A stretch of 64,000 nt of DNA from an uncultured Nitrososphaeria archaeon (GTDB lineage Archaea; Thermoproteota; Nitrososphaeria_A; Caldarchaeales; JAVZCJ01), in NCBI GenBank assembly GCA_964532175.1, contig CAZHGP010000001.1, positions 21,046 through 85,045 on the forward strand, read 5' to 3'. The notes below the pieces were generated by a model. It had not been told where the DNA came from and ran no database searches. It was given only the letters and a program-made list of their open reading frames with translations. A program made the translations under genes and the position numbers. Below, piece after piece: positions 2,837 through 31,087 of this stretch (position 1 is the stretch's first letter; every line of letters starts with the position of its first letter).

Positions 2837-3700
2837 ATGAGTACTACATTAAAAAAGAATTTTTTAGAATTATTAGATAAAGATAAAGAATTTAGATATA
2901 CTGTAGCTGGATATTTAGGATTTTCTGAAATTTTAAAAAGATTAGATACATTAGAAGAAGGACAAAAAAGAATATGGGAAAATATTGAAAAATTATGGGA
3001 GAATCAGAATAGATTATGGGAAAATCAAAATAAGTTATGGGAAGAAATTAGATTATTAAGAGAGGGCCAAAATAAGTTATGGGAAAATCAAAATAAACTT
3101 TGGGAAAATCAGAATAGATTATGGGAAGAGATTAAAGGAATAAAAGAAGATATTAAAATGCTTCATGAAGGACAAAATAAGTTATGGGAAGAAATTAGAT
3201 TATTAAGAGAAGAACAAGTAAAGCATTCAAAAATATTAGAAGAACATAGTAAAGTATTGAAAGAGCATAGTGAGATATTAAAAGAACATTCTCGAGTATT
3301 AGAAGAACATAGCAAAGCATTAGGTCAATTAATTCATGGTCAAGGTATTTTAGGAATGGAGCTTGGAGCTCTTACTGAAAGTACTTATGCTAATTTTCTT
3401 TTGGAAGATTTAAGTAAAATAATAGCATCTAATAAAGAAAGTATATTATTAAAATATAGAAATGAAAGAATTGATGAAAAAGATATAGACTTACTTGTAA
3501 TAACAGAAAGGCATGCATATATAGCAGAAATCAAAATTCACCCTAGAGTAGAAGATATTAATGAATTACTATTAAAAAAAGATATTATAATAAAAAATTA
3601 TCCGGATAAAGAAGTAATACCTATACTTACAGGCACATTAATAGGAAAAGATATAGAACAATATGCAAAAAGTAAAAATGTGAAGGTATATAAATATTAA
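2837..3700 (+). CDS. Coiled-coil tandem-repeat protein with a C-terminal PD-(D/E)xK-like (DUF3782-like) module
   Basis: Seven-residue repeats LWENQN(R/K), followed by EHSK(V/I)L(K/E) repeats. The C-terminus KDIDLLVITERHAYIAEIKIH fits a D…E-x-K nuclease-like motif. Confidence 0.45.
   Translation: MSTTLKKNFLELLDKDKEFRYTVAGYLGFSEILKRLDTLEEGQKRIWENIEKLWENQNRLWENQNKLWEEIRLLREGQNKLWENQNKLWENQNRLWEEIKGIKEDIKMLHEGQNKLWEEIRLLREEQVKHSKILEEHSKVLKEHSEILKEHSRVLEEHSKALGQLIHGQGILGMELGALTESTYANFLLEDLSKIIASNKESILLKYRNERIDEKDIDLLVITERHAYIAEIKIHPRVEDINELLLKKDIIIKNYPDKEVIPILTGTLIGKDIEQYAKSKNVKVYKY
2960..3320 (+). repeat. In-frame tandem nucleotide repeats, about 21 nt then about 18 nt period, inside the coiled-coil gene
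   Basis: The unit tgggaaaatcaaaataa(g/a)tta / tgggaaaatcagaatagatta is reiterated. It is followed by reiterated gaacatagtaaagtattgaaa-type units. Confidence 0.7.
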
Positions 3701-3764
3701 GTAGAGGGTCTCAAATTTTACTTTCTAAATTCCTCTTCTAAATATAAAAAGAAAAGTTATAATA

Positions 3765-4034
3765 TTATCCTCCACCTATTACTGGAAGTATAGTTAATAT
3801 AGAATCATTATTAATTATAGTTTCTAATCCATCAAGTAAATTTATACTTTTCCCATTTAAAAGTATTATTGCTTCATGTTTATTTTTTATGATATCTTCA
3901 AATATTTTTCCATATTTTTCTGCTAAAATTTTAAACAATTCCTTAATTTTAATAGATGAAGCTAATTCTATTTCTTCATTCTTCTTTTTTGAATAATCCC
4001 TAAATATACCATAATATTCTATAGTAACTTTCAT
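3765..4034 (-). CDS. MoaD/ThiS-family ubiquitin-like small protein (SAMP-like), C-terminal Gly-Gly
   Basis: 89 aa with a beta-grasp-like pattern. It ends …ILPVIGGG immediately before the stop, as MoaD/SAMP proteins do. Confidence 0.6.
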   Translation of the reverse strand: MKVTIEYYGIFRDYSKKKNEEIELASSIKIKELFKILAEKYGKIFEDIIKNKHEAIILLNGKSINLLDGLETIINNDSILTILPVIGGG

Positions 4035-4147
4035 TTCCTTATTTTTTATATTTCATCTTATTTTTATATTTTTTTTCTTTGGAAACAATATTAAAAGAAT
4101 CGATTTTATTAAGTATGCTCAAGTCATTTTTTATAAAACAATCTTGA

Positions 4148-4444
4148 ATGAATGTTTATATTTTAGAGCATATTAAAATGAGAATGAGCTTAGAAGAAAG
4201 AATGGCAAAAATTGAAGTAATATTAGAACAAATTGATAAAAGATTGAACCATTTAGAATCTAATATGATCAGCTTTAATGAAAGGTTAGATAACTTTAAC
4301 AAAAGATTAGATGAAAGATTCGATAGAATAAATGAAAGAATAGATAGCCTATTCAAATGGTTAATTGGATTAATATTAGGAATGTGGACTACAATAATGG
4401 TAACATTAATACCTATTCTCTTAAAAATTTTAGGATACTTATAA
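4148..4444 (+). CDS. Small coiled-coil protein with a C-terminal transmembrane helix
   Basis: RLDxxFxxRLDERFDRINERID heptad repeats are followed by the hydrophobic tail LIGLILGMWTTIMVTLIPILL. Confidence 0.4.
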   Translation: MNVYILEHIKMRMSLEERMAKIEVILEQIDKRLNHLESNMISFNERLDNFNKRLDERFDRINERIDSLFKWLIGLILGMWTTIMVTLIPILLKILGYL

Positions 4445-4566
4445 TCTTTTAAAAAAAGTAAGTTTTTATTTTGTATTTACTTTCTAAGAATTTTTTATGA
4501 ATAATTTTGAAACATCTAATTTATATTCATATTTAACTTTTTATAATTCAAGTAGCTTTAGATTTT

Positions 4567-4830
4567 GCCAGAAATAGCTTCCTATCATAGTTTAGCCCCT
4601 CTTTCTGGAGGTTGTCTATATTCCAAGCTTGGATTAGAATATAGACTTCCTATTCCTCCCATCGGGAGGCAATCCAGCAAGTAGTGGATAAACCACTACT
4701 AACCCCTCTCTATCATCCAAGCTCATAGGGCTTTTTCATTAACAAATCATTGAGGTTAAACCTCTCATCTATATGCCTCAAATGCTGAATTTCCTATGAA
4801 TAGGAAGCTTGGCTTCTGGCTAACCTTCCC
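4567..4830 (-). ncRNA. GC-rich structured element immediately 3' of tnpB; candidate TnpB omega-RNA (right-end RNA) scaffold
   Basis: A long-range stem pairs 4567-4585 with 4800-4820 (7 + 10 bp) and encloses nested hairpins. Local hairpins: cctccc-atc-gggagg (4655-4669); agtagtgg-ataaa-ccactact (4680-4700); ggatt/aatcc (4631-35 / 4671-75); palindrome tccaagcttgga (4622-33). GC is far above the flanks. Confidence 0.45.
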
Positions 4831-5595
4831 CTAACATGAAAGTATCGGGGAAAGTAGCCTTCTTTGATATTCAATAGTATTCTTTGCAATATTATTTGAA
4901 GCATTGTAATGTTTATTTGTTATCAATCCGCATTTTTCACAAATGAAAAAGCTATTTTTCCCTTTCCCAATCTTTCCAAAGCTTCCACATTTATAACATT
5001 TTATTGTAGTACAATCAGCATTTATTAGAATTTGTTTTAGATTTATTTGATTTTTATTGAATGTTGGCAGATATGTTAAAATTTTCATAGAATTATTCCA
5101 TAGGCTTTTTTCAAATGTTCTTTTTACAATTTTTCTTAACCATTCTGCATTTTTCTTATTTGTTCCTTTGCTATTATTTCCAGCTTCATAGTTTTTAAGT
5201 TCTTCAAATGAAATTATTGCTATTTCACAATTATATTGTTTAATACTTTCTAATGCAATATCAATAAGCATTTTTGAAATTTTCTCTACCCAATCTTTAT
5301 TTTGCCTCCTTATTCTTGCATTTATTCTTTGATACAATTCATTGTATTTAACTGAATTTCTATGAATTTCTTGTAATCTTTGTTTTTCTAATTCTTGAAA
5401 TATATGAGATTTAATCTTCGGTAGAAACCTTGTTTTCATTGGTTTTATTAAATTCTCTCTAATATTCCATATCCATATCGCATATGCAACTCCATATTTT
5501 GAATTTAGATCAACTCCGATTACTGAAATTCTTTGAAATTTTTCGAATTCTTCTTTGGTCAAAATTTCAATATTTTTCTTTAATGTTATATGCAA
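4831..5595 (-). pseudogene. tnpB: TnpB (IS200/IS605 OrfB) C-terminal part, covering the RuvC-like motifs and zinc finger; frameshifted relative to the N-terminal part
   Basis: RuvC-I is IGVDLN and RuvC-II is ISFEEL. The zinc finger is CYKCGSFG…CEKCG. In the RuvC-III position the sequence reads NKHYNASNNIAKN rather than DxDxNAAxNI, so the catalytic Asp is replaced. The upstream N-terminal ORF is in a different frame. Confidence 0.7.
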
Positions 5596-5605
5596 TCTCC
5601 AATGT

Positions 5606-6022
5606 TTATTTTTGGATTTTTTCTTTTCTTCTATGATGCCCTTTTAAATAAATTGGTGGTAAAACCATAGCCATCGTTGGTTTTGCACCATTTTCAATTT
5701 CTTTCTTTAGATATCTCATGTCTTCCTCAAAGATTTTTAATGAAATTCTATGGTATTTCTTTTCAGGATCTGTTATATATACTGTATTACTATCAAAATC
5801 GATGCTAAAACCAGTATTAAAGACAATTGGATGAAACATTGGAATTTCAAAGTTATTAAATTGTTTTAAAGATACTTTATAAGTTGCTGGAATTTCGAGG
5901 TTACCAATATTTATTCCTCTTCTTTTTTGAATTACTGAATACCTCCATATTGCTAATAGTTTTTCGATTTCTTCTAAATTTTCATTATTTATTCTTAATT
6001 TTATTGTTTTGTTTATTTCCAT
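5606..6022 (-). pseudogene. tnpB: TnpB N-terminal part (OrfB N-terminal domain), separated from the C-terminal part by a frameshift
   Basis: MEINKTIKLRINNENLEEIEKLLAIWRYSV is a typical TnpB N-terminus. The ORF stops 10 nt before the downstream ORF, which is in another frame. Confidence 0.65.
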
Positions 6023-6217
6023 TTTTTAATTATAATTTTTTAAAATAAGTATAAAAATATGTAAGGAAATATAGTACATTTTAAAAGAACACATTATACT
6101 TAGAGATAATTGAAAGTAAAATCATATTTATTAGCATTTCTATTCTAATAATATTGGAGAAACTTCAAATATTTTAGAGATTATTTATAAGCATGGAAAA
6201 TATTATAAAATTGATAA

Positions 6218-6420
6218 TATTCATTTAATTTAAAAAAAGGAATTCTTAATGATACTTATCAACAACAATTGAATATAATTTCTTCTATTCCATTTATTGG
6301 TGAGGAATATGCTGAGAGATTATTAAAGAATTTTAAAACAATTAAGAATATAATAAATGCTCCTCCTCAAGAATTAAGTTCAAAAGTAAAAATTCCCTAT
6401 AAAACTTCTATTGAAATTTA
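6218..6420 (+). pseudogene. Start-less remnant ORF encoding a helix-hairpin-helix (HhH2) domain, resembling the XPF/Hef-type nuclease C-terminus
   Basis: The translation …ISSIPFIGEEYAERLLKNFKTIKNIINAPPQELSSKVKIPYKTSIEI* has the I-P-x-I-G-x-x-x-A-x-x-L-L hairpin pattern. An in-frame stop lies at 6215-6217 with no ATG after it. Confidence 0.35.
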
Positions 6421-6580
6421 GAGAATTTTAAATGAAGAGTATAAGAGATAAAGATAAATATATTCCATAAAATTGTTTTTACATTAGTTGGATATCATTA
6501 ATATTCCGTAGGAAATGTTTTAAAAATTTTTAAATTAGATATATAAATCTTTAGCTAAAAAAATAAATTATAGAATAGTA

Positions 6581-7282
6581 GTGATTATTATGAATAATTT
6601 CAGAGAATCAGCATTAAAATTTACTAAAGAGAAAAATTTAAGAATTGTTTTAGCTTTAGATTTTAAAAATCTTGAAGAAGCATTAAAAATAGCTAATGAA
6701 TGTTATAAAGCTGGTATTGAATGGATTGAAGCTGGCACTCCATTAATAAAAAGTGTAGGTATGAAAGCTGTTAAAGAAATTAAGAAAAATTTTCCAAATG
6801 CTTGTGTTATAGCTGATTTAAAAACTTTAGATGCTGGTGCTTTAGAAGTAGAAATTGCTTCTGAAGCAGGTGCAAATATAATAACAATCTCAGGATTAGC
6901 TAGTTCTCAAACAATTATTGAAGCATTAGATTCTGCTAAAAAATATAATTCAAAAATAATGATAGATTTAATGTATGTAAAAAACATTCTTAAAAAATCA
7001 ATTGAATATTCAAAAATTGGTGTTGATTTTCTATGCTTACATACTGGTTTAGATATACAAAAAACTGGAGCTTCAATAATTAATAAAGCTTCTTTATTGA
7101 AAAAAATTAAAGCTTCTGTAAAAATTCCTATAGCTATTGCAGGAGGAATAAATTTAGAAAATTTAGATAATCTTTTAATTTTTAAGCCGGATATCATAAT
7201 AATTGGTAGAGCTATAACTAATTCAAATAATCCATATAAAGTTGCACTTGAATTTGTTAAAAGAATAAAAATAAATCTTTAA
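6581..7282 (+). CDS. 3-hexulose-6-phosphate synthase / OMPDC-superfamily (HPS/KGPDC-like)
   Basis: Motifs LRIVLALDF, IEAGTPL and ADLKTLDAG match HPS. Length 233 aa. Confidence 0.6.
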   Translation: MIIMNNFRESALKFTKEKNLRIVLALDFKNLEEALKIANECYKAGIEWIEAGTPLIKSVGMKAVKEIKKNFPNACVIADLKTLDAGALEVEIASEAGANIITISGLASSQTIIEALDSAKKYNSKIMIDLMYVKNILKKSIEYSKIGVDFLCLHTGLDIQKTGASIINKASLLKKIKASVKIPIAIAGGINLENLDNLLIFKPDIIIIGRAITNSNNPYKVALEFVKRIKINL

Positions 7283-7309
7283 ATGCTTAGAAATTGATTA
7301 TTTTAAGGT

Positions 7310-7672
7310 ATGAATATGTCTCACCCGATTATTAAAATGTTAAGTTGGAAAACAAGACTTTTAAGTGAAGAAGAAATAATTCAAGTACTTGCAGCAATAG
7401 CAAATATTAATTTAAATGAATTTATGCTTAAAGATATTATCAATTTTCTTCCTGAAAAAATTTCAAATGATAAAAGAAAAAGGAGAAGTATTTCTTCATT
7501 CTTAGAAACTTTAGTAGAAATTGGTTATTTAAAAAAGCCATCAGAAAGAAAATGGTCAAAAGTAACATCTTCTTTAAGTCATTTTTTAAGTCCATTATTA
7601 TTAGAATTAAGTGAATTGGAAAGAAAACCAATTAAAAAAGAAGAAGAAAAGAGAGTAATCAAGTTTTCTTAA
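7310..7672 (+). CDS. Hypothetical protein
   Basis: ORF only. Its 3' end overlaps the convergent hjc gene by 14 nt. Confidence 0.3.
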   Translation: MNMSHPIIKMLSWKTRLLSEEEIIQVLAAIANINLNEFMLKDIINFLPEKISNDKRKRRSISSFLETLVEIGYLKKPSERKWSKVTSSLSHFLSPLLLELSELERKPIKKEEEKRVIKFS

Positions 7673-8090
7673 TTTTTTTATCAGTTTTAATTATTAATGA
7701 ATTTTCTATTTCTACTGGAATTTCTAAAAATTTCCATTCTCTATTAAGAAATCTTACAGCTAAAACAGGTTTTGGAGAAAATTCTTTTCCACAATGAGGG
7801 CATTTTACAATGAATTTTTCACAAAATTCTTTTATACGTTTAATTTGTTCTTTATTTAGCATAATATAATCTTTACGAGTTGATTTTACTTCTATAGCAA
7901 GTAGATTTCCATTATCTACTGCTATTAAATCTGGTTTAGCCATTTTACCTGATCCGCTTCCAGGAGTTCTAATAGCATAAAATCCAGCTTTTCCTATATC
8001 CAAGAATTTTTTTAATAAATAATATTCTCCTTCATATCCTATTCGTGCTTTATATTTAGGAGAACTAATTTCCTTAGGCTTTCTAGGCAA
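7659..8090 (-). CDS. hjc: Holliday junction resolvase Hjc-family, with an inserted zinc ribbon
   Basis: GYEGEYYLLKKFLDIGKAGFYAIRTPGSGSG … PDLIAVDNGNLLAIEVKST reproduces the Hjc pattern (G-x-x-E … D … E-V-K). CPHCGKEF is a Cys pair. Confidence 0.7.
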   Translation of the reverse strand: MPRKPKEISSPKYKARIGYEGEYYLLKKFLDIGKAGFYAIRTPGSGSGKMAKPDLIAVDNGNLLAIEVKSTRKDYIMLNKEQIKRIKEFCEKFIVKCPHCGKEFSPKPVLAVRFLNREWKFLEIPVEIENSLIIKTDKKIKKT

Positions 8091-8209
8091 AATTCATCAA
8101 AAAATTATTGTTTTATAAGAATAAAAAATTTAATAAACAAAATAAATAAAGAAATATTTATTTACTTCAATTTTTTCTTTTTTATTACTAAAAAGAGGAG
8201 AAAAACATT

Positions 8210-8509
8210 ATGGCAGAAGAAGCAGTAATACTTGTAGGTAAAAAACCTTTGATGAACTATGTTCTTGCAGCAACAATGCCTCTTGCAGATGGAAAAAAAG
8301 TAGTTTTAAAAGCACGTGGAAGAGCTATTAGTAGAGCTGTTGATATAGCTGAAATAATTAAAAGAAGATTTGTACAAAATGCTGTATATGAAAGAATCAA
8401 TATAGGTACTGAAGAAGGAAGAGTTGGAACAGATAATCGTCCAAGAAACGTTAGTACTATAGAAATCGTTGTTTCTGCACCAAGCGAAAAATCTAAAAAA
8501 TCTAAATAG
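8210..8509 (+). CDS. albA: Alba, DNA/RNA-binding chromatin protein
   Basis: 99 aa: ILVGKKPLMNYVLAATMPLADGKKVVLKARGRAISRAVDIAEIIKRRF … is the canonical Alba sequence pattern. GGAG lies 10 nt upstream of the ATG. Confidence 0.9.
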   Translation: MAEEAVILVGKKPLMNYVLAATMPLADGKKVVLKARGRAISRAVDIAEIIKRRFVQNAVYERINIGTEEGRVGTDNRPRNVSTIEIVVSAPSEKSKKSK

Positions 8510-8528
8510 CATAGAATTTCCTATAAAA

Positions 8529-8575
8529 AGCTCACGCTAGGTTTTCCCTGGCGTTGAGCTATTTTTTATTTTTAA
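8529..8575. terminator. Hairpin (9 bp stem with one bulge) followed by a T-run between the convergent alba and geranylgeranyl reductase genes
   Basis: agctcacgc (8529-8537) pairs with gcg(t)tgagct (8551-8560), followed by attttttatttttaaatttt. Confidence 0.4.
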
Positions 8576-8599
8576 ATTTTTATATAAAAGAATAATAAA

Positions 8600-9796
8600 T
8601 TATAATATCATTTTTGCAATTTTTAATGCAAATAATGGATGTTTCATAAGTTTCATAGCTACTCTACTAGTATTTATTCCATTTGCTAAATCTATTATAT
8701 CTTGGCCATCTAATATATCTGCAAGCATATTTAATTCTTCATCATTTAATTTTTCTAATGCTTTAAGTACTTTTAGACTTTTCTTAATCCTTTCACCCCA
8801 ATAAACATTATATTTATCAACATACTGCTTAAGCATATCTTTAGAGTAATTTTTTTCTTCAATAGATTTTGCAGCTACTTCTCCAGCTATTTTTCCAGCT
8901 GCAATACTTGAATGTATTCCTCCTCCTGTTACTGGAATAACTTGCCCAGCAGCATCTCCACATAACATTATATTATCTAAAACTATTTCTTCAATCATTC
9001 CACTTATTGGAACTGGAGCTGCACCTATTTCTATTATTTTACTTTTTGAAAAGAAATTTTGATGATTTTCAATAAATTTATCTAAATAATCTTTTGCTTT
9101 TGCATTTCTAACTCCTATTCCAACATTTGCAATATTTTCACCTTTCGGAAATATCCATGCATATCCAAGAGGTGCAACCTCACTTCCAAAATAGAAATAA
9201 ATTTTATCATATTCAATTGCTTCATAATTAGTAATCCTATATTGTAAACAAGTAATTGTTTCATAGTTTTCTCTTTTAAAGAATTTCTTTGCAACTATTG
9301 AATTTACTCCATCACACCCAATCAATATTTTTGTTGAAATATTCATTTTCTTTCCCAGAATAGATAATAATATTTCTATTTTATTTTCACTTCTTTTTAT
9401 ATCTTGTGCATTAGCACATATAGCAAATTCTGCTCCAGCTTTAATAGTTTTTGATGCTAATTCTTCTAGAAAAGTAGGTTTATCTATTATCGCTCCCCCT
9501 TCTTTAGAATATCCAATTATATTTTCAAGTGAAAAAACAACTTTTTTATCTTCATTAGGTGCAAATATATATGCTCCTTTAATTTTCTGTTTTATAAAAC
9601 TTGGAGAAGGCTCTATTTCAGCATCTTTGAATGTTGAAAATGATACTGCTTCAGCACATGGTTTTTCTCCTAATCTTTTTTCTTTCTCTATTATAAGAGT
9701 TTTAGCTCCTCCTTCAGAAGCTTTTTTAGCAGCCATTAATCCTGCTGGTCCAGCTCCAATAACAACTATATCATATTCTTCATCTATTCTAAACAT
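8600..9796 (-). CDS. Geranylgeranyl reductase family FAD-dependent oxidoreductase (digeranylgeranylglycerophospholipid reductase-like)
   Basis: YDIVVIGAGPAGLMAAKKASEGGAKTLIIEKEKRLGEKPC is the FAD GxGxxG motif. 398 aa. Confidence 0.7.
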   Translation of the reverse strand: MFRIDEEYDIVVIGAGPAGLMAAKKASEGGAKTLIIEKEKRLGEKPCAEAVSFSTFKDAEIEPSPSFIKQKIKGAYIFAPNEDKKVVFSLENIIGYSKEGGAIIDKPTFLEELASKTIKAGAEFAICANAQDIKRSENKIEILLSILGKKMNISTKILIGCDGVNSIVAKKFFKRENYETITCLQYRITNYEAIEYDKIYFYFGSEVAPLGYAWIFPKGENIANVGIGVRNAKAKDYLDKFIENHQNFFSKSKIIEIGAAPVPISGMIEEIVLDNIMLCGDAAGQVIPVTGGGIHSSIAAGKIAGEVAAKSIEEKNYSKDMLKQYVDKYNVYWGERIKKSLKVLKALEKLNDEELNMLADILDGQDIIDLANGINTSRVAMKLMKHPLFALKIAKMIL

Positions 9797-9828
9797 AATA
9801 TTCTTTATTATTTAGATAAATATATGTT

Positions 9829-10470
9829 TTATTTCATTTTACTTATTTTTTCTTCAAATTTTTCTAGGCTTTTCTCTATTTCCATTCTTCTTGCTTCAAA
9901 TAATATATCGCTTTTTGTTTTTTCTATTAATGAGCGAGCAACATCACATTTTCTTCTTAATCCATATATATTTGAAACTAAAAGTGTACTCATAAGTTCA
10001 TAATAAATATTTTCCATTAATTCAAGAATTTCTAAAGCATATTCTAAATTTTGTTTTCTTAAACTTTCTATTGCTAATCTTCTTAATTCTCCTATAAAAT
10101 CTGCTAAACTAGTTACATATGTTTCAGCTAATACTGGAGCTTCTTTATAATTAAGCAAGCGTCTTTCTTCAATAAATGTTTTAAATAACATTGCTTCACA
10201 AAATTCTTGGAAAGCTATCAATACTTCTCCAGAATACATGAATTCTTCATTTTTTAATAGCATTTCTTTAAGAATTTCTAAATATTTTTTTGCTTCCAAA
10301 AAATGTTTTTCAGCTATGTCTTTCTCTCCTTTATGAAGTGAAATTATAGATAAACCACTTTCTTGAACAATTTTTCTAGTTATTTTAATTATTTCTTCTT
10401 TTATTTCACTTTTAATCGCAAGTTTTTCACGTAATGCTTCCATTTCTTTACGGAATTCTGTTAAATCCAT
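9829..10470 (-). CDS. Translin-family protein (tentative)
   Basis: 213 aa, all-helical pattern of translin-like length and character. No diagnostic motif was confirmed. Confidence 0.35.
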   Translation of the reverse strand: MDLTEFRKEMEALREKLAIKSEIKEEIIKITRKIVQESGLSIISLHKGEKDIAEKHFLEAKKYLEILKEMLLKNEEFMYSGEVLIAFQEFCEAMLFKTFIEERRLLNYKEAPVLAETYVTSLADFIGELRRLAIESLRKQNLEYALEILELMENIYYELMSTLLVSNIYGLRRKCDVARSLIEKTKSDILFEARRMEIEKSLEKFEEKISKMK

Positions 10471-10638
10471 TTTTTATCAACCTAATCAATAACTTAATCA
10501 TTATTTAGATATATTAATTTATTTAGTTTTACTTTTTTTAATAATTAATATTTTTCATTAAATTGAAAGAAAAACTTATATGATACCTTATAATAACATT
10601 GAAAAGAAAGCTTTTTAATTTAAAATAAATGAGAATTT

Positions 10639-11559
10639 ATGTTCGAGCTTTCAGAGGAAGTTAAGCGAATTCTTTATAAAGAAGGTTATAGAATAGTTGG
10701 TAAAAATCAACATTCTGCAGTTAAAATTTGCCATTGGACAAAAGAAAGTTTAAGAAAAGGAAGGAATTGTTTTAAACGTTGGTATGGTGTTCAAAGTCAT
10801 AAATGTTTACAATGTACTGTTTGGTTAGCTTGTATTAATCGTTGTCTTTATTGTTGGAGAAGCATTAGACACTCTGGGCCAATTCCGAATGAAATTAATA
10901 TAGATGAACCATTGGAATTAATAGAAGAATTAATAAAACAACAAAGGCTTTTATTATCCGGCTTTAAAGGTAATCCAAATGTTGATAAATCAAAATGGGA
11001 AGAAGCACAAAATCCAAATAATGTTGCTTTAAGCCTTATTGGAGAAAGCATACTTTATCCAAAAATTTCTGAACTTTTAGAAGAATTTCATAAAAGAAAT
11101 TTTACTTCTTTTCTAGTAACAAAAGGTACTTTACCAAAAGAATTAGCATCATTAAAAGAAGAACCTACTAATCTTTATATATCTATTTCTGCACCTGATA
11201 AAGAAACATATGAAATTATTGATAAACCATTAACAGAAAATAGTTGGGAAGCACAAATGGAAAGTTTGGAATTAATGAAAAGTTTCAATTGTAATAAAGT
11301 TATAAGGATAACTTTAGTAAAAGGATTGAATATGAAAAATCCAGAAAAATATGCTAAATTAATAGAAAAAGCAGAGCCTGATTTTTGTGAAGTTAAAAGT
11401 TATACATGGGTTGGTGAAAGTAGAAAAAGGTTACCTAAAACAGCAATGTGCTCCATGGAAGAAATTGAAAATTTTTCAATAGAATTATCAAAAAATTTAG
11501 GATATAAAATTAAAGATAAAGATATACCTAGTCGCGTTGTTTTACTTTCTAAAAAATAA
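10639..11559 (+). CDS. taw1: tRNA 4-demethylwyosine synthase Taw1/TYW1 (radical SAM)
   Basis: Radical-SAM CxxxCxxC (CINRCLYCW) is preceded by an extra Cys cluster (CHWTKESLRKGRNCFKRWYGVQSHKCLQC) that could ligate a second Fe-S cluster. 306 aa, matching archaeal Taw1. Confidence 0.65.
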   Translation: MFELSEEVKRILYKEGYRIVGKNQHSAVKICHWTKESLRKGRNCFKRWYGVQSHKCLQCTVWLACINRCLYCWRSIRHSGPIPNEINIDEPLELIEELIKQQRLLLSGFKGNPNVDKSKWEEAQNPNNVALSLIGESILYPKISELLEEFHKRNFTSFLVTKGTLPKELASLKEEPTNLYISISAPDKETYEIIDKPLTENSWEAQMESLELMKSFNCNKVIRITLVKGLNMKNPEKYAKLIEKAEPDFCEVKSYTWVGESRKRLPKTAMCSMEEIENFSIELSKNLGYKIKDKDIPSRVVLLSKK

Positions 11560-11561
11560 AT

Positions 11562-12167
11562 TTAGAATCTAATAGTTTCATTTATTTCTAATCCTTTTGA
11601 AGTGAAAACTAATATATCTATACCATTTCCACTTGCAGCATCTCTTGAAATTGAAGCTTTTATTGCTTTTATTGCTAGATCGTATAATTCTTTTGGTTTC
11701 ATATTATTTTTATACTCTGCTTCTATTATTCCTATTGCTATTGCTGCCCCTGAACCTACGCTTGCATAATCATCTTCTATTATTGATCCTAAAGGATCTA
11801 AAACAAATATATGCGCTCCTTCATCATCTATTCCTCCTATTATTGTTTCAGTTAAATAAGGGAAAAATCTACTATTGAATAAATGATTAGATAGAATTTT
11901 ACTTACAGTTTGCACACTAGGTTCTCTACCTATTTCAAGCTTATATAAGTTTATTATAGCTATAGCATCTCTAATTAATATTTGCATATCTCCAATCATT
12001 CCTGCGCAAGCAGCTCCAATTTTATCAGTTATTTGAAAAACTTTTTTTGCTTCCTTGCTTATAACAAAGTATCCATAAGATACTCTTTTTTCTGATGCTA
12101 ATACAACACAATTATCTCCTTTAATACCAACAGTAGTTGCTCCTGGAAAAGGGTATTGAGTTGTCAA
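11562..12167 (-). CDS. psmB: Proteasome beta subunit
   Basis: Propeptide then TTVGIKGDNCVVLASEKR (Thr1-type mature N-terminus). The annotated start codon is TTG. Confidence 0.85.
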   Translation of the reverse strand: MTTQYPFPGATTVGIKGDNCVVLASEKRVSYGYFVISKEAKKVFQITDKIGAACAGMIGDMQILIRDAIAIINLYKLEIGREPSVQTVSKILSNHLFNSRFFPYLTETIIGGIDDEGAHIFVLDPLGSIIEDDYASVGSGAAIAIGIIEAEYKNNMKPKELYDLAIKAIKASISRDAASGNGIDILVFTSKGLEINETIRF

Positions 12168-28205: not shown

Positions 28206-28640
28206 ATGATGAGTATGAGTTCGGATGATGTGTTTGAAGCGATTTCTCATCCATTGCGAGTTGAGATTATAAAGGTGTTGGCTAAAGGACCCAGACGTTT
28301 TGCTGATATTAAGAGGGAGCTAAGGATTGAGAGTAGCGGCCTTTTGGATTTTCATTTAAAAAAGCTGGACAATCTAATTTCAATAAATGAGGAAAGCCTC
28401 TACGTTTTAAACGAGAGAGGTTTCACTGCACTTCAAGCTATTGAAGCCTTATCCAAATATGGCTGGCAGAAAAGAGCATTTTACATAAATCTCTTGTTTT
28501 CCATCTTGATGAACATTTACATCATGCTAACAATGGTGGAATGGTTTCCATTCGTGCTGGCCATATCTGCAGCGTGGATGGTTTTTTATAGTTACTGGAC
28601 ATTTATTAGAAGGCATGTATCTCTTAAGCTTAGATCTTGA
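28206..28640 (+). CDS. ArsR-family wHTH regulator fused to C-terminal transmembrane helices
   Basis: DVFEAISHPLRVEIIKVLAKGPRRFADIKREL is the ArsR HTH. The C-terminus has two hydrophobic helices (INLLFSILMNIYIMLTMV, FPFVLAISAAWMVFY). The gene is much more GC-rich, with G/C-ending codons, than its neighbours. Confidence 0.55.
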   Translation: MMSMSSDDVFEAISHPLRVEIIKVLAKGPRRFADIKRELRIESSGLLDFHLKKLDNLISINEESLYVLNERGFTALQAIEALSKYGWQKRAFYINLLFSILMNIYIMLTMVEWFPFVLAISAAWMVFYSYWTFIRRHVSLKLRS

Positions 28641-29668: not shown

Positions 29669-31087
29669 ATGTTTAGGAAAATGGTACTATATCTATATAA
29701 TACTTTATCAAGAAAAATTGAAGAATTTAAGCCACTTAAAGATAATATAATTACTATTTATTCTTGTGGTCCAACAGTTTATGATTCGCCACATATTGGA
29801 CATGGAAGACATGAAATAATTATGGATTCTTTTACAAGATTTTTAGAATATATTGGTTATGAAGTTAGATATGTTGAAAATATTACAGATGTGGATGATA
29901 AAATTATTGCAAAAGCAGAGAAAATGGGCTTAACTCCAGGAGAAGTAGCTTTAATTTTCACATTGGATTATTTTGAGCAAATGGAAAAATTAGGTATTAG
30001 AAGAGCTTGGAGACATCCTCAAGCAACAAATCACATTCAAGAAATGATTGAAGTAATAAAAAGTTTGATTGAAAAAGGGTATGCATATGAAGTTGATGGA
30101 GATGTGTATTTCTCAGTTAATAAATTTAAAGAATATGGAAAATTATCTAAGCAAGATATAAATGCTTTAAGAAAAGGTGCTAGAGTAGAAATTGATGAAA
30201 GGAAAAAAGATCCAATAGATTTTGCTTTATGGAAGAAATCTAAACCTAATGAGCCTGCATGGACAAGTCCATGGGGAATGGGTAGACCCGGCTGGCATAT
30301 AGAATGCACAGTGATGTCTATTAAATATTTGGGAGAGACTATTGATATTCATGCAGGTGGTGAGGAACTCATTTTTCCACATCATGAGAATGAAATTGCA
30401 CAAAGTGAAGCATTCACTGGAAAACCTTTTGTAAGATATTGGATGCATCATGGATTAATAACAATAAAAGCAGAAAAAATGGCTAAATCTATTGGAAATG
30501 TTATCCTTATAAGCGATTTATTAGAACGTTATGATGCAGATGCTTTTAGATATTTTGTGCTATCTGCTCATTATAGAAATCCATTAGAATATTCGGAAGA
30601 ATCAATGATAGCAGCTCAAAATACAATAAATAATGTAAGAAGAGCAATAAAAAAAATTGAATATGCTTTATCTTATCCTTCTAAGGAAATAAAAGAGAAA
30701 ATCAATATAGAAATTGAAAAATTTAAAGAAGAAATTATTAAAGAACTTTCTTATGATTTTAATACTCCAAAAGCTTTAGCTTTACTTATAGAATTAACTT
30801 ATAAAATAGCAGATAATGCTAATAAAATAGATTCTGAAAATTTAAAAGAATATTTAAAAATTATTAAAGAATTATGGAATGCACTTGGTTTCTTTCAAGA
30901 GAAAAAATCGGATAAAAAAGAAATTCTTATAGAAGATTTATTAAAAATTATATTAGAAATTAGAGAAATTGAAAGAGAAAAGAAAAATTATGAATTATCA
31001 GATTCTATAAGAGAAAAATTAAGGAAATTGGGTATTGAAATAGAAGATACTCCATATGGTACTTTCTGGTTTTTAAGTAGGAGCTAA
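29669..31087 (+). CDS. cysS: Cysteinyl-tRNA synthetase
   Basis: HIGH motif (PHIGHGR), KMSKS motif (KMAKSIGN). 472 aa. Confidence 0.85.
   Translation: MFRKMVLYLYNTLSRKIEEFKPLKDNIITIYSCGPTVYDSPHIGHGRHEIIMDSFTRFLEYIGYEVRYVENITDVDDKIIAKAEKMGLTPGEVALIFTLDYFEQMEKLGIRRAWRHPQATNHIQEMIEVIKSLIEKGYAYEVDGDVYFSVNKFKEYGKLSKQDINALRKGARVEIDERKKDPIDFALWKKSKPNEPAWTSPWGMGRPGWHIECTVMSIKYLGETIDIHAGGEELIFPHHENEIAQSEAFTGKPFVRYWMHHGLITIKAEKMAKSIGNVILISDLLERYDADAFRYFVLSAHYRNPLEYSEESMIAAQNTINNVRRAIKKIEYALSYPSKEIKEKINIEIEKFKEEIIKELSYDFNTPKALALLIELTYKIADNANKIDSENLKEYLKIIKELWNALGFFQEKKSDKKEILIEDLLKIILEIREIEREKKNYELSDSIREKLRKLGIEIEDTPYGTFWFLSRS

Follow-up and report, generated by a model that had tools for sequence, protein, structure and literature searches.

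Positions 4566 to 6650 (minus strand) of the 64,000-nucleotide (nt) stretch analyzed here (the window; contig CAZHGP010000001.1 of an uncultured Nitrososphaeria archaeon) very probably represent one copy of a non-autonomous mobile element of OMEGA type (for obligate mobile element-guided activity) found in metagenome-assembled genomes (MAGs) of thermophilic archaea from hot springs ('Nitrososphaerota archaeon'). The protein family that it carries is a lineage-restricted, strongly diverged TnpB, and the window copy has recently been inactivated. A histidine in place of the RuvC-III aspartate is already known at the level of clades; the omega-RNA is new, and the architecture, anchored on the motif TTTTA, is not that of IS605.

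A RuvC-III histidine as a family character

Two minus-strand open reading frames (ORFs; 5606-6022 and 4831-5595) lie in different frames, both of which are open and overlap across an A-rich stretch, and their conceptual joining gives a 397-aa TnpB/Cas12f-like protein. The first-pass annotation, made from the letters of the window alone, had taken them for one frameshifted TnpB, and it was right: both ORFs lie where it had placed them, and alignment identifies a 1-nt insertion. The RuvC-I and RuvC-II motifs and the CxxC…CxxC finger that it had named can be read from the sequence, and their key residues are invariant in relatives. A search for other copies or intact relatives, which it had suggested, returned 177 relatives of the joined protein (mostly full-length at ~390-430 aa, with 58-78% identity), a multi-copy family drawn nearly entirely from JGI metagenomes, with a few NCBI archaeal MAGs. 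In an alignment of 30 relatives, D172 (RuvC-I), E274 (RuvC-II), H372 and the zinc-finger cysteines C343, C346, C362 and C365 are invariant.

Histidine at the RuvC-III aspartate position, also noted in that annotation, was recovered by profile alignment with solved Cas12f/TnpB chains and distant relatives, which places the family's 'NkHlNAsnNI' on the 'NADyNAArNI' of the solved chains. Instead of the catalytic aspartate (DRDxN or NADxN), 55/55 unique family proteins from the fetched loci have histidine. Distant TnpB relatives have aspartate in this column, and the nearest sister cluster (38% identity) has histidine. The median ratio of nonsynonymous to synonymous substitution rates (dN/dS) of the family is 0.27 (1,482 pairs), indicating purifying selection. 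Because the histidine is invariant across a family under purifying selection, the change defines the family; it is a family character and not a sign of decay or domestication. The annotation's view of the histidine as decay or nuclease death is contradicted both by this invariance and by precedent, since clade-wide RuvC-III Asp-to-His 'rearrangements' have been described and, from their conservation, argued to be active (Altae-Tran et al. 2023, PMC10691335). Elsewhere among TnpB-like proteins, a distant representative (P0351, 26% identity) independently carries histidine at RuvC-III (DRHLNAS), and a closer one (P0286) carries tyrosine at this position.

The family is isolated: an exhaustive search of 1.84 billion representatives found only 11 at E<1e-30, most of them fragments, followed by a steep fall to E of about 1e-10. 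PF07282 is the only Pfam match (26.5 bits against a cut-off of 26.3). Profile search of the PDB and Foldseek both place Cas12f best and TnpB next; the AlphaFold model (pLDDT 75.8), used for fold search only, has Cas12f and TnpB as its top Foldseek matches (probability 1.0, TM 0.40-0.50). A protein-alignment scan of a genome-contig collection gave candidates only and no true relative, and a protein scan of a viral-contig collection gave no match.

A covarying omega-RNA at the right end

Downstream of the gene, the GC content rises to 37-46% against 25.7% for the whole window, and the predicted fold of 4545-4850 on the minus strand has an energy of -108 kcal/mol (z = -5.8). Searches with nhmmer recovered matching sequence right behind the gene at about 70 loci; almost every homologue is followed by it. 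The window holds a single profile match (4553-4856), and matches to the profile always lie directly after a TnpB homologue or in derivatives resembling miniature inverted-repeat transposable elements (MITE-like derivatives). Conservation stops at one column of a 58-sequence alignment, beyond which the sequences are unrelated; this boundary follows ...CTATGGTAGGAAG-N5-CACGCC(C) in most copies and ...CTATTTCTGGCA in the window.

The structure is conserved as well. A single 17-bp long-range stem had been proposed at first pass; the closure is real, but it consists of two helices, one of 7 bp (4814-4820 with 4567-4573) that covaries and one of 15 bp (4794-4810 with 4576-4590) that is almost invariant. 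The outer, closing stem exists in two forms, GCCAGAA/TTCTGGC and GGCGTG/CACGCC, and changes from one to the other as a block. RNAalifold reports 17 pairs with compensatory changes. When the minimum-free-energy structure of the window is laid on the alignment, 82.8% of cells are paired compared to 40-47% with slid partners, and double-change pairs number 33 compared to 11-18 in slid controls.

Location, overlap with the 3' end of the ORF, size and a sharp scaffold/flank boundary all point to an omega-RNA as in TnpB systems. From its sequence, the region is predicted to be the cognate omega-RNA scaffold, an assignment that is new and well supported and that agrees with the candidate named in the first-pass annotation: the element follows about 70 homologues, covaries and ends sharply at the element boundary. 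It is extremely improbable that the structured region is instead a separate RNA, with a housekeeping or regulatory function, that happens to lie beside the gene; its high structure z-score would suit such an RNA, but it occurs once in the window, is found elsewhere only right behind a TnpB homologue or within a MITE-like derivative, is absent together with the gene from the syntenic contig described below, and has no Rfam match. Neither the whole window at gathering thresholds nor positions 4400-5000 at permissive settings matched an Rfam family above chance level. A 15-mer scan of the genome-contig collection for the RNA used a pattern too short to give other than chance matches, and nhmmer and tblastn on those matches came back empty.

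Insertion site and empty allele

Contig L087, from another sample, is 93-95% identical to the window, fully syntenic with it and without positions 4566-6650. It aligns to window positions 3179-4496 and 6651-11564, with 81 nt between, and carries a small upstream gene followed by 107 bp and then a hexulose-phosphate-synthase (HPS) gene. In the window, the element is inserted after the ninth codon of the HPS gene and is flanked by two copies of a perfect 13-nt direct repeat, the upstream one preceded by TTTTA (Table 1); the single copy in L087 reads TTTTA-AAATCCAAAGCTA. In this empty site, the sequence that occupies the guide position of the window copy stands directly after TTTTA. The same arrangement of TTTTA and repeat recurs at L031, L037, L038, L034, L061, L082, L005 and L045.

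An alternative hypothesis is that the locus encodes a domesticated, nuclease-dead TnpB that serves, like TldR, as an RNA-guided DNA-binding regulator of the adjacent HPS gene. Such a role would accommodate the replaced RuvC-III aspartate, a broken ORF next to an intact RNA, and a guide position that matches 13 nt at the HPS coding start, beside TTTTA. We nevertheless regard it as very unlikely. The 13-nt match is an arm of the direct repeat, whose arms continue into both sides of the empty site, and the same repeat pattern is found at unrelated loci. The family is multi-copy with unrelated flanks, target-site duplications and MITE-like derivatives, the insertion is absent from the near-identical (93-95%) strain, and the protein at the window locus is itself frameshifted. 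Both D and E are kept, the histidine is a plausible metal ligand, and clades with this change are considered active (PMC10691335). The domesticated regulator raised at first pass is not supported for these reasons. The 13-nt repeat was also considered as a regulatory guide-target pair in its own right, which the comparison with L087 disfavors.

The upstream repeat is separated from the left-end module by a unique 114-nt segment (6537-6650), for which neither the window nor 88 loci yielded a source. On the plus strand it provides a new HPS start (ATG 6590) and 20 N-terminal codons (MNNFRESALKFTKEKNLRIV). The 3-hexulose-6-phosphate-synthase/OMP-decarboxylase-family gene (6581-7282, plus strand) survives with this new start; the close orthologues P0121-P0123 do not have the 20-residue extension.

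Element ends, target duplications and mobility

Intact relatives have terminal inverted repeats of ~11 nt (GGGCGTGTCCAA) and target duplications of 8-11 bp that start right after TTTTA. Their left end, GG(G)CGTGTCCAA, corresponds in reverse complement to the right end TTGGACACGCCC. At L034, L061 and L082, GG(G)CGTGTCCAATTATTTAA comes directly after the upstream repeat; conservation of the left end starts at this point in a dozen loci, and the first ~11 nt of this sequence form the reverse complement of TTGGACACGCCC. The duplications measure 10 bp (L034, L082), 9 bp (L061), 11 nt (L031, L037, L038) or 8 nt (L005, L045). Six junctions have flank duplications of at least 10 nt preceded by TTT[AT], compared to a mean of 0.07 at 29 control offsets, and TTTA precedes the left terminus by 7-10 nt at 9/11 distinct loci compared to 7.8% at random control positions.

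Mobility is evident from the distribution of copies. More than 80 loci have different flanks, and several contigs hold two to four family members (up to 4 on one 65-kb contig). At L034:197-851, a 655-bp MITE-like derivative combines the left inverted repeat, the left-end module, a complete omega-RNA and the right end without TnpB; it lies between the two copies of a perfect 10-bp duplication (TTACCATAAT) with TTTTA before it.

The TnpB-only architecture, the omega-RNA at the right end and a guide flank that, in the empty site, comes after a short T-rich motif would also fit an ordinary IS200/IS605 element of the IS1341 type, moved by a Y1 TnpA, and the first-pass annotation had named an IS605-type TnpB. 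Yet intact relatives have both terminal inverted repeats and target-site duplications, and IS200/IS605 and IS607 elements have neither (PMC13565253). Among the called neighbors of 8 loci there was no Y1 (HUH) TnpA, and no Y1 gene was seen near any inspected copy. An ordinary IS200/IS605 element is, therefore, very improbable. As to insertion directly 3' of a short motif that doubles as the target-adjacent motif (TAM), which IS1341-type elements would have, the junctions point both ways: in the empty site the right-end flank comes right after TTTTA, and the left end joins 8-13 nt further on.

Copies of the element are mosaic. The RNA closest to that of the window belongs to proteins only 50-61% identical, L017 and L030 share a downstream flank but differ in gene body, and L083 and L085 have common downstream genes and different upstream ones; such mosaics and shared flanks with different bodies imply that recombination among copies is frequent. 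Side by side with this, degenerate partial omega-RNA fragments, some inverted, adjoin other copies (L017:3086-3170, L030:1850-1935, L030:225-270 and the right-end flanks of L027 and L038), and TnpB bodies that are only 60-70% identical and differ in left-end type share one downstream flank. These adjoining fragments and shared flanks indicate that insertions are nested and that copies often recombine or replace one another. An identical TnpB (P0097) occurs in four MAGs (L083-L086; GCA_038872755, GCA_038871875, GCA_038873895, GCA_038874475) with the same downstream genes (tRNA-intron endonuclease, crenactin) and, in one of them, different upstream genes, so that the element there marks a rearrangement breakpoint or an assembly join.

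Recent frameshift in the window copy

In a DNA alignment with 10 intact relatives, the window has one extra nt at about 5613-5621 (GAAAAAATCCAAAAAT compared to GAAATAGT-AAAAAAT). The first-pass annotation had asked for this frameshift to be checked. Across the element, two further contigs, L001 from JGI and L206 from ENA, match the window at 99.7-99.9% identity with no gap and therefore carry the same frameshift, which places the 1-nt insertion in three independent assemblies. The dN/dS of the window copy against relatives (0.23) is not above the family median, which argues that the ORF was broken recently. Decay is thus limited to the ORF of the window copy, through a recent 1-nt insertion, and the RNA is intact.

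Could the split gene still yield one protein, by programmed +1 frameshifting or transcriptional slippage at ...CAA AAA TAA ACA...? A +1 slip of tRNA-Lys at AAA-UAA-A, stimulated by the stop codon, would restore the exact family length, and such recoding would sit well with a frameshift that is stable in three assemblies and with the unelevated dN/dS of window pairs. However, a recent mutation explains that ratio equally well, the A run is only 5-6 nt, and 0 of about 60 intact relatives are frameshifted here; with no intact relative shifted, the site is not a conserved recoding signal. We consider recoding highly unlikely and retain recent inactivation.

Upstream modules and wider window

The other features of the locus are listed in Table 1.

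Table 1. Features of the element and its insertion site, in window coordinates
Feature	Position	Strand	Remark
Remnant of original HPS 5' end (..IIQVALDF)	4541..4565	+	Adjoins right end; matches L087 4500-4524
Guide position, flank directly 3' of scaffold (AAATCTAAAGCTACTTGAAT)	4546..4565	-	Conservation among loci stops exactly here
13-nt direct repeat, 3' copy (AAATCTAAAGCTA)	4553..4565	-	
Whole inserted segment, 2,085 bp	4566..6650	-	Absent from syntenic contig L087
Predicted omega-RNA scaffold, ~290 nt	4566..4856	-	Overlaps last ~26 nt of ORF; ends at right end of element
Closing stem, 3' strand (TTCTGGC), right-end terminus	4567..4573	-	In relatives, right terminal inverted repeat ...TTGGACACGCCC
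Closing stem, 5' strand (GCCAGAA)	4814..4820	-	Pairs with 4567-4573; covaries with GGCGTG/CACGCC variant
TnpB-like ORF, C-terminal part, 254 aa	4831..5595	-	RuvC-I/II, C4 zinc finger, RuvC-III His
RuvC-III NKHYNASNNI	His codon 4911-4909	-	Read from sequence
C4 zinc finger, CxxC...CxxC	4998-4930	-	Read from sequence
RuvC-II ISFEEL	Glu codon 5205-5203	-	Read from sequence
RuvC-I VIGVDLN	Asp codon 5511-5509	-	Read from sequence
TnpB-like ORF, N-terminal part, 138 aa	5606..6022	-	Collinear with residues 1-135 of ~400-aa relatives
Frameshift site	5611..5621	-	+1 nt compared to all intact relatives (DNA alignment)
TnpB-proximal upstream region, 'type A'	6023..6120	-	Common to 13 other loci
Degenerate XPF-like fragment inside element (end of ERCC4 domain and HhH2)	6141..6448	+	Pfam HHH_5, ERCC4; frameshifted in window
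Conserved left-end module	6458..6536	-	Truncated and diverged at 5' side; no canonical left inverted repeat
Unique 114-nt segment between upstream repeat and left-end module	6537..6650	-	
13-nt direct repeat, 5' copy (AAATCTAAAGCTA)	6651..6663	-	
TTTTA, candidate TAM	6664..6668	-	Directly 5' of upstream repeat copy

The XPF-like fragment, with its two helix-hairpin-helix motifs, is repeated, in divergent orientation, upstream of many TnpB copies (L079:343-642, L028:3124-3471, L045, L032, L011 and about 20 others). Because most of these copies are frameshifted, the fragment is probably not a functional accessory gene but hitch-hiking cargo; a few copies keep an ORF of 99-115 aa, and the hosts own a separate full-length XPF of 225 aa (L082:1-216). 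A different upstream region, 'type B', is conserved over more than 260 nt in about 20 copies (for example L056:1729-2019, L068:6-296 and L022:2160-2450) and contains, in inverted orientation, a copy of the 3' segment of the omega-RNA (…CCTATCAGTTTAGCCCCTTTCTGGAA…) along with hairpins (ctcacctcc…ggaggtgag).

Beyond the element, the window is AT-rich, its genes include Alba, Hjc and proteasome genes, and its proteins have exact counterparts in MAGs with the NCBI label 'Nitrososphaerota archaeon'. Over its full length (1-64000), ARAGORN found no tRNA gene, and no Rfam family reached its gathering score. The other GC-rich islands that were inspected, at 28206-28640 and within 29669-31087, fall within ORFs. 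A 287-aa ORF (2837-3700, plus strand) has a striking heptad-like repeat in tandem (…LWENQNRLWENQNKLWEE…, …EHSKVLKEHSEILKEHSRVLEEHSK…) and, after it, a C-terminal domain without repeats; this ORF is shorter in L087 (224 aa).

Proposed life cycle of the element

We propose that the element couples a ~400-aa D-E-H TnpB/Cas12f-like protein with a C4 zinc finger to a ~290-nt omega-RNA that overlaps the 3' end of the gene and whose last helix doubles as the right terminus of the element. Transcription through the right end would append the flanking ~16-20 nt as a guide. As this flank directly follows TTTTA in the uninterrupted chromosome, the ribonucleoprotein would recognize the empty or excised site. 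By analogy with established TnpB biology, the D-E-H ribonucleoprotein may bind, and probably cut, the empty site next to the TTTTA TAM, and cutting there could bias repair toward re-acquiring, and hence retaining, the element. Histidine is a metal ligand in other RNase-H-fold nucleases, for instance in the DEDH tetrad of Argonaute, which makes nuclease activity of the D-E-H site plausible. Purifying selection on the family and the place of TTTTA beside the guide-matching sequence of the empty site speak, indirectly, for RNA-guided cleavage that depends on the TAM. Mobilization itself would probably fall to an enzyme acting in trans that recognizes the ~11-nt inverted repeats GGGCGTGTCCAA and makes 8-11-bp duplications right after TTTTA. 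The window copy landed in the 5' end of HPS, which now starts from element-derived sequence; its left end is atypical, its protein is lost, and its intact RNA could be used at most by a paralogue.

Several points weigh against this reading. Curated families score the protein far below their cut-offs (NCBIfam guided_TnpB, 25-46 bits against 100; IS200_TnpB, 27 against 425; Cas12f2, 21-55 against 450), and a literature search found no biochemistry on any D-E-H TnpB, so that binding without cutting is possible. The omega-RNA and its transcript ends are predicted here from DNA. No transposase bounded by the same ends was found in 88 loci, the window or the viral contigs, and a left-end motif scan of the viral-contig collection had no match. 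A recognizable duplication is present at only about 10 of about 45 right-end junctions, and repeat length varies from 8 to 13 nt across loci, the repeat of the window being 13 nt and not 9-10 nt. Symmetrical ends together with a duplication hold for the relatives; the window copy has the duplication, but no canonical left inverted repeat turned up in the window, even with as many as 3 mismatches allowed. Other CTGGCA-type copies likewise have no matching left inverted repeat, and the 'TGCCAGAA' repeat that would match the right-end variant of the window is found in none of the CTGGCA-type elements.

A further feature concerns how the ends join: the element always inserts in one orientation, its right end exactly at the boundary between TAM and target (TTTTA/N...) and its left end 8-13 nt further. 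Insertion in one orientation, anchored on the TAM and with a variable stagger, is not the outcome expected of a symmetric DDE transposase. Joining of this kind means that every occupied site keeps the TAM and a partial protospacer at its left flank. We speculate that the D-E-H TnpB itself may act in target choice or strand cleavage at integration, which would couple an OMEGA nuclease to integration; we think this unlikely, if worth stating. Alternatively, within such a coupling, cuts by TnpB at 8-13 nt from the TAM could have been repaired and left the duplications as scars.

Comparison with known systems

The element was compared with the TnpBs of ISDra2 (8H1J/8EXA) and ISFba1 (8IAZ) and with the Cas12f proteins AsCas12f (8J12), CnCas12f (8HR5) and OsCas12f (9NZQ). 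Like these, it encodes a protein of ~400 aa with RuvC-I and RuvC-II motifs, a C4 zinc finger ahead of RuvC-III, the motif N-x-[D/H]-x-N-A-x-x-N-I and a predicted fold of the same kind. As in TnpB/OMEGA systems, a long structured RNA overlaps the 3' end of the gene, the guide would derive from the flank, and a T-rich 5' motif lies beside the target. In contrast, the family has His for the RuvC-III Asp, its sequence is strongly diverged, its RNA matches no described family, and it has no CRISPR array.

A conserved, clade-wide histidine and an archaeal distribution recall the TnpB clades with a rearranged RuvC-III, namely RIIIr-4 (Asp-to-His) and the archaeal RIIIr-6 (PMC10691335). The main histidine clade, RIIIr-4, has no zinc finger and includes immobile genes linked to RHH/MazE, often with the RHH/MazE gene upstream (PMC10691335). 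Unlike RIIIr-4 as so described, the present family has an invariant zinc finger, is mobile and has no RHH/AbrB neighbor at the inspected loci. An altered RuvC site with a retained RNA is also a property of TldR and other exapted nuclease-dead TnpBs, from which the family differs in being mobile, not single-copy, without a conserved target gene and in keeping D and E.

Among mobile elements, the IS1341 group of IS200/IS605 resembles the family in being TnpB-only, with an RNA at the right end and a guide flank after a short target motif; it differs from the intact relatives, which have ~11-nt inverted termini and 8-11-bp duplications; no Y1 TnpA was seen near the inspected copies. TnpBs inside inverted-repeat transposons, along with solo copies mobilized in trans, are known (PMC10691335, PMC13565253). 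Symmetrical ends, target duplications and a TAM coupled to insertion-site preference are shared with inverted-repeat (DDE-type) transposons and with Fanzor-carrying eukaryotic transposons, and, as for DDE-type TnpB transposons, solo copies are presumably mobilized in trans. Unlike inverted-repeat (DDE-type) transposons, however, the family has no transposase found with matching ends, its duplication spans 8-13 nt, and TTTTA stands on the left side only, in one orientation.

Implications

Inverted-repeat ends and TTTTA-anchored duplications place the family outside IS200/IS605 and make it an archaeal addition to the small number of TnpBs in prokaryotes that travel with transposons of another kind. 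Compact (about 400 aa) and thermophilic, with a clear scaffold, a precise scaffold/guide boundary and TTTTA as a candidate TAM, the family is well suited to the question of D-E-H cleavage. In a mobile lineage of TnpB, a RuvC-III site that looks dead can be stably maintained under selection, and loss of a catalytic residue alone should therefore not be taken for domestication.

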